A program made the position numbers and the translations under genes. The notes beneath the pieces are model-generated. The model ran no database searches. It was not told where the DNA came from and saw only the letters and a program-made list of their open reading frames with translations. From a virus (taxonomy: Duplodnaviria > Heunggongvirae > Uroviricota > Caudoviricetes), in IMG/VR virus record IMGVR_UViG_2744054979_000007: 7,555 bases of DNA; one strand, given 5' to 3'. Of this stretch, positions 2,935 to 7,555 are shown piece after piece; position 1 is the stretch's first letter; each line of letters starts with the position of its first letter.

Positions 2935-2948
2935 GCGGGTGCTTGAGG
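2935..2948 (+). promoter_or_regulatory. hok mRNA 5' element (tac-like) complementary to the 3' fbi-like element
   Basis: GCGGGTGCTTGAGG (2935-2948) is near-perfectly complementary to CCTCAACGCACCCGC (3312-3326) at the 3' end of the locus, the long-range 5'-3' pairing characteristic of hok-family mRNAs. Confidence 0.5.
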
Positions 2949-3106
2949 CTATCTGTCTCAGGCATGAACACTGAAAGGCAGATAGAGAAAAGCCCCAGTT
3001 AACATTTCGCGTCCTGCAAGACGCTTAACATTAATCTGAGGCCCAATCTATGTCTCACAAATGTAGGTTAGCCTCTTACGTGCCGAAAGGCAAGGGGAAG
3101 CAGGCT

Positions 3107-3262
3107 ATGAAGCAGCAAAAGGCGATGTTAATCGCCCTGATCGTCATCTGTTTAACCGTCATAGTGACGGCACTGGTAACGAGGAAAGACCTCTGCGAGG
3201 TACGACTCCGAACCGGCCAGACGGAGGTCGCTGTCTTCACAGCTTACGAACCTGAGGAGTAA
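3107..3262 (+). CDS. hok: Hok/Gef-family type I toxin (small membrane peptide), HokD/RelF-like
   Basis: 51 aa peptide MKQQKAMLIALIVICLTVIVTALVTRKDLCEVRLRTGQTEVAVFTAYEPEE, nearly identical to the HokD (RelF) sequence as I remember it. The track ORF 3050..3262 is an in-frame upstream extension of 70 aa, possibly corresponding to mok. An antisense Sok RNA is expected opposite the leader but cannot be placed from sequence alone. Confidence 0.9.
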   Translation: MKQQKAMLIALIVICLTVIVTALVTRKDLCEVRLRTGQTEVAVFTAYEPEE

Positions 3263-3621: not shown

Positions 3622-4677
3622 GTGCGGGTATTACTTCGACCTGTTCTGGTACCGGAACTCGGGCTGGTGATCGTTAAGCCGGGCCGTGAATCCATGCCGG
3701 TATTCCACAATACCCGGGTACTGGTGGAGCCGGAACCGAAAAGCATGCGTAATCTGCCGTCCGGGGTCGTTCCTGCCGTTCGCCAGCCGCTGGCGGAGGA
3801 TAAATCATTACTGCCATTTTTCAGCGACGAACGAGTGATTCGTGCTGCTGGTGGCGCTGGCGCATTGTCTGACTGGTTACTGCGCCATGTTAAATCCTGC
3901 CAGTGGCCACACGGCGATTATCACCACAGTGAAACCGTCATTCACCGTTATGGTACCGGCGCAATGGTGTTGTGCTGGCACTGCGACAACCAGCTGCGCG
4001 ACCAGACCTCCGAATCACTCGGGCAACTTGCTCACCAAAACCTGTTTGCATGGATGATTGACGTCATACGCCATGCAATGAATGGCTCGCAGGAACGGGA
4101 ATTATCGCTGGCTGAATTATCCTGGTGGGCGGTCCGCAATCAGGTGGCGGACGCGCTACCGGAAGCGGTATTACGTCGTTCGCTGGGGTTGCGTGCGGAA
4201 AAAATCCGCTCAATGTACCGTGAAAGCGACATCGTACCGGGAGAGCAGACCGCCACCAGCATACTGAAGCAGCGCACAAAAAATCTTGCGCCGCTGCCTC
4301 ACGCCCACCAGCAAAACCCGCCACAGGAAAAGACGGTGGTCAGCATTGCCGTTGATCCGGAGTCACCGGCTCAGTATCTCCAGCGCCAGAAATCACAACG
4401 GGAAGAGATGCCTGTATACACGCGTTGGGTAAAAACGCAGAAATGCATGACGTGTGGCAATCAGGCAGATGATCCGCATCACATCATTGGTCATGGACTG
4501 GGAGGGATGGGAACAAAGGCTGATGATTTGTTTGTTATTCCGCTGTGCCGTAAATGCCATAGCGAACTACACGCCGGGGTAAAAGATTTTGAAGAAAAAC
4601 ACGGCAGCCAGCTGTTGTTGCTGATTCGTTTTTTAATGCACGCGAGAAATTCGGGTGTTCTGAAGTGGAAAGCATAA
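3622..4677 (+). CDS. DUF968 / YdfU-like prophage protein with a C-terminal Cys/His zinc-binding, HNH-like motif
   Basis: 351 aa ORF with GTG start at 3622 and GGAGGT at 3613-3618 (short spacer). C-terminal motif CMTCGNQADDPHHIIGHG...CRKCHSELH. Assignment to the YdfU family of Qin-like prophages is from memory of the N-terminus MRVLLRPVLVPELG. Confidence 0.8.
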   Translation: MRVLLRPVLVPELGLVIVKPGRESMPVFHNTRVLVEPEPKSMRNLPSGVVPAVRQPLAEDKSLLPFFSDERVIRAAGGAGALSDWLLRHVKSCQWPHGDYHHSETVIHRYGTGAMVLCWHCDNQLRDQTSESLGQLAHQNLFAWMIDVIRHAMNGSQERELSLAELSWWAVRNQVADALPEAVLRRSLGLRAEKIRSMYRESDIVPGEQTATSILKQRTKNLAPLPHAHQQNPPQEKTVVSIAVDPESPAQYLQRQKSQREEMPVYTRWVKTQKCMTCGNQADDPHHIIGHGLGGMGTKADDLFVIPLCRKCHSELHAGVKDFEEKHGSQLLLLIRFLMHARNSGVLKWKA

Positions 4678-5058
4678 ATGACTGAACGCATAGAATTTGT
4701 TTTGCCTTACCCGCCAACGGTGAACACTTACTGGCGTCGTCGTGGCAGCACATATTTTGTATCAAAAGCCGGGGAGCGTTATCGCCGGGCAGTGGCGCTT
4801 ATTGTTCGCCAGCAGCGGCTGAAATTAAGCCTGTCCGGAAGGTTGGCAATAAAAATTATTGCAGAACCACCGGATAAGCGCCGCCGTGATCTGGACAATA
4901 TTCTGAAAGCGCCGCTGGATGCGCTGACGCATGCGGGGTTGCTAATGGACGATGAGCAGTTTGATGAAATCAATATCGTTCGTGGTCAGCCAGTATCTGG
5001 TGGACGTCTGGGGGTGAAGATTTACCCCATAATGCATGAAGAGCAGGTCAAAAAATGA
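4678..5058 (+). CDS. rusA: RusA-family Holliday junction resolvase
   Basis: 126 aa ORF whose ATG 4678 directly follows the upstream TAA (4675-4677). The motif PDKRRRDLDNILKAPLDALTHAGL matches the RusA acidic catalytic core (RRRDLDN...DAL), and size and position before Q are typical. Confidence 0.9.
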   Translation: MTERIEFVLPYPPTVNTYWRRRGSTYFVSKAGERYRRAVALIVRQQRLKLSLSGRLAIKIIAEPPDKRRRDLDNILKAPLDALTHAGLLMDDEQFDEINIVRGQPVSGGRLGVKIYPIMHEEQVKK

Positions 5059-5876
5059 AACTGGAAGATTTACCGAAATACTACTCCCCAAAATCCCCCG
5101 GCCTGACTGATGCATCGGCCTCAACGTCGAAAGATGCGCTGAGTATCACTGATGTGATGGCCGCGCAGGGCATGACACAGAATCGGGCTGAGATGGGGTT
5201 TTCTGCGTTCCTGGGGAAAATGGGCATCAGTATGAATGACAGGGCGCGGGCAACAGAATTACTGGCAGATTATGCACTCAGTCGGTGCGATCGTGTGGCG
5301 GCGTTGAGAAAACTTCCGGCAGAAATAAAACCGGTAGTGATGCGCATTATGGCTTCGTACGCTTTTGAGGATTATGCCCGCAGCGCAGCGAGTAAAAAGC
5401 AGTGCCCCTGTTGCCGAGGGGAAAAATTTATTGAAGGCGAAGTTTTTACAAACAAGGTTCAGTATCCGGATGGCAAGCCGCCAGTATGGGCAAAGTGTAC
5501 GAAAGGTGTGTATCCGTCTTACTGGGAAGAATGGAAAAAAATTCGGGAGGTGGTGAAAGTTTCTTGTCCTGAATGTAAAGGGAAGGGGGAGATTTCCACT
5601 GCCTGTAAAGACTGCCGTGGGCGTGGTGTCGCCATTCATCGTGAAGAGTCGGTAAAACGTGGTATGCCTGTTATCAGAGACTGCCAGCGTTGTGGTGGTC
5701 GTGGCTGTGAAAGACTACCATCAACGGAGGCATTTAATGCCATATGCAAAGTGACGAGTGCTATCACGCTTGATACGTGGAAAAAATCAGTGAAACGCTT
5801 TTACGATACGTTGGTGGTTCGGTTTGACATTGAAGAGGCATGGGCGGAGCGGCAGTTAAAGAGGGTAACGCGATAG
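5055..5876 (+). CDS. Late-gene antiterminator Q (long, Cys-rich QuuQ/Q82-like type)
   Basis: 273 aa ORF whose ATG 5055 overlaps the rusA stop as ATGA. Its position immediately upstream of a promoter and short-transcript terminator fits Q. It carries CPCCRGEK, CPECKGKG, CKDCRGRG and CQRCGGRG zinc-finger-like repeats. Confidence 0.8.
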   Translation: MKLEDLPKYYSPKSPGLTDASASTSKDALSITDVMAAQGMTQNRAEMGFSAFLGKMGISMNDRARATELLADYALSRCDRVAALRKLPAEIKPVVMRIMASYAFEDYARSAASKKQCPCCRGEKFIEGEVFTNKVQYPDGKPPVWAKCTKGVYPSYWEEWKKIREVVKVSCPECKGKGEISTACKDCRGRGVAIHREESVKRGMPVIRDCQRCGGRGCERLPSTEAFNAICKVTSAITLDTWKKSVKRFYDTLVVRFDIEEAWAERQLKRVTR

Positions 5877-5881
5877 TGTTG

Positions 5882-5909
5882 TTGATTTTTCCCGAATCTG
5901 TGGTAAATT
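5882..5909 (+). promoter_or_regulatory. Candidate late promoter PR' (with the Q-utilisation region expected nearby)
   Basis: -35 TTGATT (5882-5887), 16 bp spacer, extended -10 TGgTAAATT (5901-5909), beginning just after the Q stop codon (5874-5876). A terminator lies about 50 nt downstream. Confidence 0.45.
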
Positions 5910-5958
5910 TGCTCTAACGATGGGCGTTTTATGCCTGACGTTAGAAGATTTTTTACAC

Positions 5959-5980
5959 CCCGCCGCCTGGCGGGTTTTTT
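5959..5980 (+). terminator. tR'-like intrinsic terminator
   Basis: Perfect stem CCCGCC (5959-5964) / GGCGGG (5969-5974) with loop GCCT, followed by TTTTTT (5975-5980). Confidence 0.6.
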
Positions 5981-6102
5981 ATGACTGAAATCGCGTCAGT
6001 ACAGTAAACGCGCTGGTGGCGGTGAATACCTGTCTTTCAGCTTGCTGGCTTTTTCGACAAGAGTTATTGGTGTGTCACGTTAACCGGAAAAGGGAAAAAG
6101 AC

Positions 6103-6300
6103 ATGCTGAAACAGCAGGATATGACAGAAACCGCCAGAGTGGTGTTTAATGAATTAAGCGTCACCGAACCGGCGACAGCCGGGGAGATTGCGCAGAATAC
6201 TTACCTTTCACGCGAACGCTGCCAGTTAATACTGACCCAGCTGGTTATGGCGGGTCTGGCAGACTATCAGTTCGGTTGTTACAGACGCCTTCCGCAGTGA
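6103..6300 (+). CDS. Small winged-helix/HTH-like putative DNA-binding protein (65 aa)
   Basis: ATG 6103 has AGGGA (6091-6095) 7 nt upstream; the track start GTG 6016 has no ribosome-binding site. The segment ATAGEIAQNTYLSRERCQLILTQLVMAGLA looks like a helix-turn-helix recognition unit. Stop at 6298-6300 lies inside a terminator hairpin. Confidence 0.6.
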   Translation: MLKQQDMTETARVVFNELSVTEPATAGEIAQNTYLSRERCQLILTQLVMAGLADYQFGCYRRLPQ

Positions 6301-6310
6301 AGGCTTTTTT
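6287..6310 (+). terminator. Intrinsic terminator overlapping the stop of the small gene
   Basis: Stem GCCTTC (6287-6292) / GAAGGC (6299-6304) with loop CGCAGT, followed by TTTTTT (6305-6310). Confidence 0.65.
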
Positions 6311-6327
6311 ATTTGTGGTAAATGGGC

Positions 6328-6358
6328 GGCTGGTGGGTGTTAGGGGCACCCACCAGCC
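6328..6358. promoter_or_regulatory. Perfect 12-bp inverted repeat (candidate operator or RNA hairpin) upstream of the methyltransferase gene
   Basis: GGCTGGTGGGTG (6328-6339) and CACCCACCAGCC (6347-6358) are exact reverse complements around a 7-nt loop, with no T-run after. A 10-bp perfect palindrome TTTGCGCAAA (6405-6414) and a direct repeat CCATCTGCT (6357-6365, 6397-6405) lie nearby. Confidence 0.4.
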
Positions 6359-6451
6359 ATCTGCTCATGCGTTGGGGTCACAAGCAAACCTCAGGCCCAT
6401 CTGCTTTGCGCAAAAGCGGTATGAGCCTATCAGAGAAGTGCTTATTGATCT

Positions 6452-7501
6452 ATGGCTAATACTGTAAAAATATCCAGTTGTGAGTTAATCAACGCCGACT
6501 GCCTGGAATTTATCCGGTCGTTACCCGAAAATTCTGTTGACCTGATAGTCACGGACCCGCCGTACTTTAAAGTGAAGCCTGAGGGCTGGGATAACCAGTG
6601 GAAAGGGGACGAAGATTACCTTAAGTGGCTGGACCACTGTCTGGCCCAGTTCTGGCGGGTGTTAAAACCTGCCGGAAGCCTTTACCTGTTCTGTGGGCAT
6701 CGCCTGGCATCTGATATCGAAATCATGATGCGTGAACGCTTCAGTGTGCTGAACCATATTATCTGGGCGAAGCCGTCCGGACGCTGGAACGGATGCAACA
6801 AGGAAAGCCTGCGGGCGTATTTCCCCGCCACAGAGCGCATTCTGTTCGCGGAACATTATCAGGGGCCGTATCGTCCGAAAGATGCCGGGTATGCGGCGAA
6901 GGGCAGTGCACTGAAACAGCATGTGATGGCCCCGCTGATTTCTTACTTTCGTGATGCGCGCGCGGCCCTGGGGATAACGGCAAAACAGATTGCAGATGCC
7001 ACAGGAAAGAAAAACATGGTGTCGCACTGGTTCAGTGCCAGTCAGTGGCAGCTACCGAACGAAAGCGATTATCTGAAATTACAGTCGCTGTTTGCCCGGG
7101 TGGCAGAAGAGAAACATCAGCGCGGTGAACTGGAAAAGCCCCACCACCAGCTGGTGGATACGTATACGTCACTGAACCGGCAGTATGTGGAGCTGCAGAG
7201 TGAATATAAGCATCTGCGGCGGTATTTTGGTGTGACGGCGCAGGTGCCGTACACGGATGTGTGGACACATAAACCGGTGCAGTTCTATCCCGGGAAACAT
7301 CCGTGCGAAAAACCGGCAGAAATGCTGCAGCAGATAATCAGCGCAAGCAGTCGTCCGGGTGACCTGGTTGCAGATTTTTTTATGGGCTCAGGTTCAACGG
7401 TAAAAGCGGCACTGGCGCTCGGGCGTCGTGCGATTGGCGTTGAGCTGGAGACCGGACGTTTTGAGCAGACAGTCAGGGAAGTTCAGGGTTTAATCGTTTG
7501 A
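6452..7501 (+). CDS. Beta-class (motif IV before motif I) DNA N6-adenine/N4-cytosine methyltransferase, apparently an orphan
   Basis: 349 aa ORF with the catalytic motif DPPY (in LIVTDPPYF) near the N-terminus and the AdoMet-binding motif FFMGSGST near the C-terminus, preceded by HPCEKPAEMLQQII. This arrangement matches YhdJ/CcrM-type enzymes. No restriction endonuclease gene is present in the window. The ribosome-binding site is weak. Confidence 0.9.
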   Translation: MANTVKISSCELINADCLEFIRSLPENSVDLIVTDPPYFKVKPEGWDNQWKGDEDYLKWLDHCLAQFWRVLKPAGSLYLFCGHRLASDIEIMMRERFSVLNHIIWAKPSGRWNGCNKESLRAYFPATERILFAEHYQGPYRPKDAGYAAKGSALKQHVMAPLISYFRDARAALGITAKQIADATGKKNMVSHWFSASQWQLPNESDYLKLQSLFARVAEEKHQRGELEKPHHQLVDTYTSLNRQYVELQSEYKHLRRYFGVTAQVPYTDVWTHKPVQFYPGKHPCEKPAEMLQQIISASSRPGDLVADFFMGSGSTVKAALALGRRAIGVELETGRFEQTVREVQGLIV

Positions 7502-7555
7502 AACGGATGAGATTGCAGAATTAATTACGCACCATTATTATTCTGCTCCCGGCCC

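Follow-up and report, generated by a model that had tools for sequence, protein, structure and literature searches.

The window analysed here, 7,555 nt of a virus of the Caudoviricetes (IMG/VR record IMGVR_UViG_2744054979_000007), carries a gene for a β-class N6-adenine DNA methyltransferase (nt 6452–7501, + strand), and the approximately 140 nt in front of it (nt 6312–6451, + strand) form a conserved structured 5′ leader of the methyltransferase mRNA. The leader appears to be new and is a candidate for a new RNA family. We propose, with a probability of about 0.65, that leader and gene belong to the first late-operon cassette of a lambdoid prophage, that the cassette would provide anti-restriction modification, and that it would be gated by Q read-through together with the structured leader. 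The original prediction for this region had named a small open reading frame (ORF), a terminator, a perfect 12-bp inverted repeat, the palindrome TTTGCGCAAA (nt 6405–6414) and the methyltransferase, all at a position behind the antiterminator gene Q, and every one of these features lies where it had been placed. The mechanism attached to them, in which a small protein similar to the controller (C) proteins of restriction-modification systems acts on the palindromes as operators, is probably wrong.

The leader is preceded in the window by a small gene for a winged-helix protein (nt 6103–6300, + strand), and among 22 loci of different genera in which both genes occur, the spacer between the small gene and the methyltransferase gene measures 147–154 nt in 21. 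A covariance model (R1) matches the window at nt 6312–6460 with 129 bits. Leaders of relatives are 76–84% identical in nucleotides to that of the window and contain long invariant blocks, as compared with 69–77% for the methyltransferase gene and 42–55% for its third codon positions. The leader precedes M.EcoGII-like genes in mEp460, Hafnia phage yong2, a Providencia phage, phiKO2, PY54, N15 and Vibrio phage VHML. A gene-agnostic scan, in which viral contigs were searched for a pattern of three short conserved blocks and the hits then filtered with a covariance model, returned 59 hits (58 plus the remnant locus L099) that represent 37 unique leaders. An M.EcoGII-like gene, 50–96% identical in amino acids to that of the window, starts exactly at the ATG of the model in 34 of the 37; of the other three, one runs into the end of its contig, one precedes a disrupted gene and one belongs to a decayed remnant. 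The small gene stands beside the leader in 35 of 42 leader loci and is absent from 7, so that the leader persists in phages without it. Because the features of this region are conserved across genera, they are not products of chance.

No family of Rfam 15 matches the leader: the best candidate is a generic hairpin at 22.9 bits against a cut-off of 36 bits, the N15 leader gives no match either, and sok is the only family found in the whole window. Neither a tRNA nor a known RNA family was found in the intergenic region, and no description of the leader, or of the control of N15 genes 51 and 52, was found in the literature. A promoter scan of nt 5700–7555 revealed no promoter-like site, including the stretch between the small gene and the methyltransferase gene. 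An internal ORF of 45 aa (nt 6322–6459) was considered and rejected, as stops and frameshifts break it in most relatives.

Pairing was counted in 60 distinct leader homologues (alignment A3). Five helices make up the leader: P1, P2, the outer part of P4 (GGC...GCC), the inner P4 hairpin (GCUUU...AAAGC) and a long-range helix. The proposed structure pairs 86.5% of the cells versus 28–39% for slid controls, its covariation score is 0.329 versus 0.04–0.10, and changes on both sides occur in 27 of the 38 leader pairs. The minimum free energy (MFE) fold of the window sequence by itself gives the same structure (z = -4.6). P1 is formed by S1 (AUGGGC, nt 6322–6327, + strand), an invariant 5′ segment, and S2 (GCUCAU, nt 6363–6368, + strand), and closes P2; RNAalifold predicts it, and its pairs were counted at alignment columns 11–16 with 57–62. 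Five of its six pairs are standard in all 60 sequences, and 95% of its cells pair when G.U wobbles are included. The P2 hairpin (nt 6328–6358, + strand) is the perfect 12-bp inverted repeat reported by the repeat finder, with arms GGCTGGTGGGTG (nt 6328–6339) and CACCCACCAGCC (nt 6347–6358) that are complementary at 12 of 12 positions and separated by 7 nt. We roughly estimate that 150 nt would contain such a perfect 12-bp repeat with a short loop about 2e-4 times by chance. Across lineages, compensatory changes are seen in 11 of the 12 pairs of P2, and the hairpin is rebuilt from lineage to lineage, for instance as CUGGUGGGUG/CACCCACCAG, ACUGUAAAAGUG/CACCUUUACAGU and GCGGGACGAG/CUCAUCCCGC.

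The second domain is P4. Its outer part joins S3 (AGGCCCA, nt 6393–6399, + strand) to S4 (GAGCCUA, nt 6423–6429, + strand), a segment conserved in alignments A2 and A3 that lies 22 nt before the start codon; the column pair 92:129 reads GC 42 times and AU 15 times. The stem of the inner hairpin (nt 6403–6417, + strand) covaries as well, and the palindrome forms its apex. The remaining helix is long-range. Both RNAalifold and the single-sequence MFE fold pair its 5′ strand, GGUCACAAGC (nt 6376–6385, + strand), with the translation-initiation region, where the 3′ strand, GCUUAUUGAUC (nt 6440–6450, + strand), contains an invariant GATC and ends 1 nt before the ATG. Changes on both sides are found in 8 of its 9 pairs. 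This helix is the least biased evidence for the structure, because it was absent from the model used for alignment. Its two strands lie about 70 nt apart, and covarying helices, including one with strands at such a distance, point to RNA structure rather than to operators. The palindromes thus cannot be read as isolated operators, since the 12-bp repeat and TTTGCGCAAA are stems of one covarying element of about 140 nt that is kept where the small gene is missing. An extra pairing of S2 with S4 was considered and dropped; inspected by eye, it is not consistent across lineages.

S1 can also pair with S3. In this alternative an invariant UGGGC meets an invariant GCCCA; four of the five core pairs are Watson-Crick in 60 of 60 sequences, and the fifth, which has gaps in 3 rows, is Watson-Crick wherever both letters are present. 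Two double changes accompany this alternative: one Mixta sequence has UGAGC with GCUCA, and a flanking pair is A-U versus G-C. The fold with P1 and the fold with S1:S3 differ by a median of 3 kcal/mol, and S1:S2 is favoured in 48 of the 60 sequences. Two mutually exclusive pairings of the same segment look like a switch, which is a resemblance and not a proof. The apex of P4 has a further property: in each of the 37 variants its self-complementarity extends across the centre, which takes six forms (GCGC, CGCG, TGCA, ACGT, TCGA and GGCC), whereas the apex of P2 is not self-complementary. This palindromy suggests either a dyad-symmetric ligand on DNA or a contact between two RNAs.

The window sequence holds no canonical Shine-Dalgarno in the stretch before the ATG (nt 6440–6450), and lambdoid-type leaders likewise lack one there. 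Positions -12 to -2 lie within a covarying helix in leaders of the lambdoid and Providencia types, and 11–15 of 17 nt are paired in most predicted folds. The GATC at -5 to -2 (nt 6447–6450) is kept in nearly all leaders of these two types; over the window as a whole GATC is under-represented, with 12 occurrences versus 23.9 expected. The surrounding UGAUC(U/C) is complementary in register to GGAUCA just 5′ of the anti-Shine-Dalgarno in 16S rRNA, and may act as a weak ribosome-binding site. Across the leaders compared, no pattern links the absence of the small gene to leader features such as start-site pairing or loop motifs.

Upstream of the cassette lies Q (nt 5055–5876, 273 aa, PF03589), followed by a putative late promoter pR′ (nt 5882–5909, + strand; TTGATT, 16 nt, and an extended -10 of TGG-TAAATT). 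This promoter was picked by eye from the sequence and scores under the threshold of the promoter scan, but its position directly after Q and before a tR′-like terminator fits a putative pR′. The terminator scan found that tR′-like intrinsic terminator, the first of the late operon, at nt 5959–5980 (+ strand; hairpin nt 5959–5974, CCCGCCGCCTGGCGGG + TTTTTT) and a second one at nt 6287–6310 (+ strand; hairpin nt 6287–6304, GCCTTCCGCAGTGAAGGC + TTTTTT), which overlaps the stop codon of the small gene. By eye, compensatory changes preserve the stem of the second hairpin in other genera, and its T-run varies. In N15-type phages the tR′ terminator sits directly 5′ of the leader, a position equivalent to that of the second terminator of the window. 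Phages with other types of Q begin to share homology with the window at about nt 5959, that is, at the tR′-like terminator.

Late transcription from pR′ would have to cross both terminators, and with two terminators to pass, the methyltransferase gene would be read only by a Q-modified polymerase after induction. The mRNA would then carry the leader, in which P1 would close P2, P4 would form a second domain with TTTGCGCAAA at its apex, and the GGUCACAAGC:GCUUAUUGAUC helix would come to lie immediately 5′ of the AUG. Because this helix abuts the AUG in a stretch without an ordinary Shine-Dalgarno, we infer that the leader most likely limits or times the translation of a toxic enzyme. A bolder version, which we hold tentatively and would not bet on, makes the leader a new class of cis-regulatory RNA for the nonspecific adenine methyltransferase genes of temperate phages (lambdoid, N15-like and Vibrio VHML-like). 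A switch on the exclusive UGGGC pairings would in that case be operated by a protein, either the winged-helix protein as a non-homologous analogue of Com of phage Mu or the methyltransferase itself at the apex of P4, and the lethal enzyme would be timed to lytic growth.

Several observations weigh against our main proposal. The alignment was fitted to a model that already contained P1, P2 and part of P4, so that the pair counts of these helices are biased upward, and the leader sequences are related to one another, so that the shuffle control overstates significance. The strand test favours the + strand weakly, with 86.5% versus 84.2% of cells paired and 140 G.U versus 88 A.C cells. A hairpin does not require its apex to be palindromic through the centre, and RNA folding offers no explanation for this property of P4. 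Predicted folds of most N15-type leaders leave the start region unpaired; occlusion is hence not general, and some further role must fall to the conserved core. In 12 of 13 lineages exactly 22 nt separate the last conserved block (AGCCUA) from the ATG; the sequence in this interval (nt 6430–6451 in the window) is unrelated between lineages, and such constant spacing could equally mean that the core promotes initiation and does not block it.

By its sequence the methyltransferase is a member of the M.EcoGI/M.EcoGII family, and the enzyme itself is already known. Its 349 aa match PF01555 over residues 29–340 (E 2.8e-44) in the motif order of the β class, with DPPY at residues 35–38 and FxGxG (FMGSG) at residues 310–314. 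It is identical to M.EcoGII at 327 of 350 positions (about 93%) over the full length with 2 gap positions, a lower bound, since the reference was machine-read from a PDF (PMC11551740, Table S1) with evident reading errors. The likeness to M.EcoGI and M.EcoGII as described in the relevant passages of PMC5778455 comprises the length, this identity, the β-class order and the location in a prophage late region. Identity to the enzyme of phage 1720a-02 is 94.5% in amino acids; that enzyme is named in the same source as very similar, and the phage carries the same small gene and leader upstream as the window. According to those passages, M.EcoGI and M.EcoGII are β-class enzymes that methylate adenine in any sequence context, as was shown for these two, and form part of [quoted passage not shown]; the lysogen does not express them, their expression is harmful, and overcoming host restriction is the function that the authors proposed for the family. 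Nonspecific adenine methylation is predicted for the allele of the window from its family membership. The suggestion that the enzyme might protect progeny DNA from restriction agrees with that proposal and had been anticipated by it. A copy of the gene in ST131 is untranscribed in culture, as stated in the part of PMC4659465 that deals with it. Passages retrieved by keyword from PMC5778455, PMC11551740, PMC4659465 and PMC6602927 make no mention of the upstream small gene or of the leader.

The methyltransferase was rightly described as an orphan in the post-Q late region. No endonuclease partner is present within 7 kb downstream in the closest annotated relative (99.4% identical), where tRNA-Ile, tRNA-Arg, DUF3927, IraM, an esterase and lysis genes follow, nor downstream in phiP27, where tRNAs, stx2e and lysis genes do; upstream within the window there are Q, RusA and DUF968, and no restriction endonuclease gene. 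The downstream search for a partner that had been advised thus turned up tRNAs, stx or other cargo, and lysis genes in the relatives. Aeromonas phage phiO18P encodes the enzyme within its lysis cassette, where only 21 nt separate it from the preceding holin gene, too few to accommodate the leader. M.EcoGII is in wide laboratory use, and more than half of the complete E. coli genomes contain a gene of its family, often immediately 5′ of Shiga toxin genes. The leader with its linked small protein would provide a concrete and easily testable mechanism by which such a lethal methyltransferase could be silenced and then released.

The small gene encodes 65 aa and matches phrog_331 (E 5e-37). Its ORF and the N-terminus MLKQQDMTE are kept in phages of at least 10 genera, among them Escherichia, Salmonella, Citrobacter, Kluyvera, Klebsiella, Buttiauxella, Enterobacter, Mixta, Mangrovibacter, Scandinavium, Hafnia and Providencia. 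With dN at 0.08–0.55 and synonymous sites saturated, the gene is, judged by its substitutions, real and under purifying selection. The name "TrmB family regulator" that databases give it derives from a Pfam similarity below threshold (PF01978, E 0.0015, 18.8 bits against a cut-off of 25.6 bits). AlphaFold2 models the protein as a canonical winged helix of topology H1-b-H2-H3-b-b (pLDDT 90.5). Foldseek returned generic winged-helix neighbours and nothing at E <= 1e-3; the neighbours include the N-terminal dimerisation domains of small-molecule O-methyltransferases, OhrR/MarR, IclR/TtgV, MotA-NTD and Zalpha. No specific function emerged from Pfam, NCBIfam, PADLOC or the fold search. By residue count the protein is near-neutral to slightly acidic, and it has two Cys residues only.

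Linkage of the small gene to the methyltransferase is tight. A species-level genome scan found the methyltransferase 147–154 nt downstream in 22 of 23 small-gene loci, and each of the 55 phage records in which the small gene occurs contains the methyltransferase too, the spacing having been checked by coordinates in about a dozen. The locus L099, with a small gene and no methyltransferase, was examined as a counter-example and rejected as a decayed remnant. Decayed cassettes are seen at three loci: L099 has a truncated small gene and a degenerate leader at nt 3980–4320 and no methyltransferase, L103 has a premature stop in the small gene (nt 4001–4069), and L163 a disrupted methyltransferase gene. 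In the linear-plasmid prophages N15, phiKO2 and PY54, gp51 is homologous to the small protein (hhalign probability 95%, E 4e-8). There the gp51 gene comes shortly before the annotated late promoter and terminator that precede the methyltransferase gene, with the leader directly after the terminator (L112, L110 and L111, respectively, at about nt 990–1510). We describe the small winged-helix gene as a frequent but dispensable companion of the methyltransferase cassette, and its product is most likely an accessory regulator or partner of the cassette. The idea of a dedicated regulator is borne out as far as the linkage goes; the C-protein and operator mechanism that came with it is not.

Under that mechanism, a C-protein-like small protein would bind the intergenic palindromes as DNA operators and switch the transcription of the methyltransferase, which we regard as unlikely. 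The likeness to type II restriction-modification systems consists in a small gene of DNA-binding type that adjoins a methyltransferase gene, with inverted repeats nearby. The winged helix is a common DNA-binding fold, the synteny of the two genes is strict, and P4 is a loop-less DNA palindrome in every lineage whichever of the six self-complementary centres it has. However, C proteins (about 70–100 aa) differ in having an Xre-type helix-turn-helix (HTH), which Pfam, AlphaFold2 and the fold search did not find here, as well as an endonuclease and a promoter/C-box arrangement upstream of the small gene. Here, the repeats are found 3′ of the small gene and within the transcribed leader, where they behave like RNA helices; in P2 and the long-range helix it is the base pairing that is kept, through covariation, and not the sequence. 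The lack of a promoter-like site between the genes, the lack of a second copy of the P4 palindrome in 15.7 kb of prophage, the seven loci that keep the leader without the small gene and the N15-type arrangement with the small gene before the late promoter all speak against operators, and by eye the sequence of the palindrome does not track the type of small protein. What survives weakly is a possible binding of some protein to the P4 palindrome. A separate rival is autoregulation by the methyltransferase itself, a dimer with an HTH in its recognition domain that would bind palindromic P4 as DNA or in its own mRNA and so limit its own synthesis. P4 is palindromic in every lineage, also where the small gene is absent, and M.EcoGII, according to the pertinent parts of PMC11551740 and PMC5778455, elutes as a dimer, has an HTH in its recognition domain and acts on RNA as well as DNA. 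Such autoregulation is purely inferential, the enzyme is reported to be without sequence specificity, and we consider it improbable.

Alternatively, the small protein may bind the leader RNA, open the structure at the start site and activate late translation, as Com does for mom in phage Mu. This is possible, although we lean against it. The two systems would share their logic, in that a toxic DNA-modification gene has a small gene on its 5′ side and a structured leader over its start region, and homologues of Com precede nonspecific adenine methyltransferases in Mu-like prophages (PMC3299994, PMC6483171). Yet the small protein is not homologous to Com, its charge offers no support, it shows no known RNA-binding signature and its fold matches are generic. 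Leaders without the small gene, which is missing from the seven loci already mentioned, look like those with it, and in N15-type phages the gene is not co-transcribed with the leader. As a design, our best reading of the analogy is that the cassette resembles com-mom of Mu more than a C protein of restriction-modification. Com-mom and the Com/methyltransferase cassettes (PMC3299994, PMC6483171) likewise place a small gene immediately 5′ of a late, cell-harmful gene for anti-restriction DNA modification; mRNA structure over the start region, predicted here for lambdoid- and Providencia-type leaders, and the confinement of expression to lytic growth, proposed for the cassette here, are further points of likeness. 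In contrast, Com is a Cys4 zinc finger and the winged helix here has no such motif, the enzymes are unrelated (Mom or α-class methyltransferases versus β-class), and the leader is much larger here, with about 140 nt and several domains. With this cassette, the com-mom design for late anti-restriction functions would gain a second, independent example.

The leader could also be a riboswitch for a ligand such as SAM or SAH, or a self-contained kinetic switch on the exclusive UGGGC pairings. It does contain several invariant single-stranded blocks, and both exclusive helices can form in 60 of 60 sequences, with double changes and with folds separated by the median difference given above. No known riboswitch class was matched, though, the S1:S2 fold prevails in most sequences, and no metabolic logic ties a ligand to a phage late gene; we rate this reading as quite unlikely. 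Still less probable, and in our estimate remote, is a role of the repeats at the DNA level, such as paired Chi sites that would shield replicating or packaged linear phage DNA from RecBCD. The window has 8 Chi octamers (GCTGGTGG), four per strand, at nt 3847, 4253, 4305, 6012, 6329, 6350, 7144 and 7150, versus 0.27 expected from shuffles, and 0 of 200 shuffles reach 8. Two of them are in the arms of P2 (nt 6329–6336, + strand, and nt 6350–6357, - strand), and in lambdoid-type leaders the 5′ arm that bears Chi is invariant in 19 of 20 and the other arm drifts. Other lineages, however, keep the hairpin with entirely different sequences free of Chi, and Chi leaves unexplained the rest of the element and its fixed position before the start codon. 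Inside the methyltransferase gene, two Chi octamers overlap as the palindrome CCACCAGCTGGTGG (nt 7144–7157).

Judged by gene content and by Pfam and Rfam scans, the window is the junction of the early-right and late regions of a lambdoid prophage. The order 5′ of Q is a DnaC-like loader, DUF1627, DUF977, a QueH homologue, hok/sok, DUF968 and RusA. The cassette (nt 5877–7555) is present in 3000 of 5426 complete E. coli genomes with identity up to 99.4%, and also in Stx2 phages, phiP27, 1720a-02 and others. As in the late-operon leaders of lambdoid and N15-like phages (pR′, tR′ and the first late gene), a constitutive late promoter would lead into a terminator passed by Q-modified polymerase alone, and cargo genes such as tRNAs and stx lie downstream; the window differs by the second terminator and by a conserved structured leader specific to the methyltransferase gene. 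In annotated relatives tRNA-Ile starts 50 nt past the methyltransferase stop and is followed by tRNA-Arg, then stx or other cargo, and lysis genes. From these relatives, the last bases of the window (nt 7551–7555, + strand) are predicted to be the first of tRNA-Ile (ileZ), which the window end cuts; ARAGORN reports no tRNA in the window, where this gene is truncated.

A few further observations concern the neighbouring genes. The stretch from pR′ to the first terminator (about nt 5916–5980) would be transcribed constitutively in lysogens into a short RNA whose position can be compared with that of StxS in Stx phages (PMC7547250). Q is long at 273 aa and contains, besides the PF03589 domain, a DnaJ-type zinc-finger stretch (CXXCXGXG). 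A hok/sok type I toxin-antitoxin locus occupies nt 2937–3262, with sok RNA at nt 2937–3112 (120.5 bits in Rfam) and a Hok/Gef ORF at nt 3050–3262. The prophage also bears a homologue of the epoxyqueuosine reductase QueH (nt 2183–2869, Pfam E 1.2e-65), a tRNA-modification enzyme, and its relatives carry tRNA genes as well.

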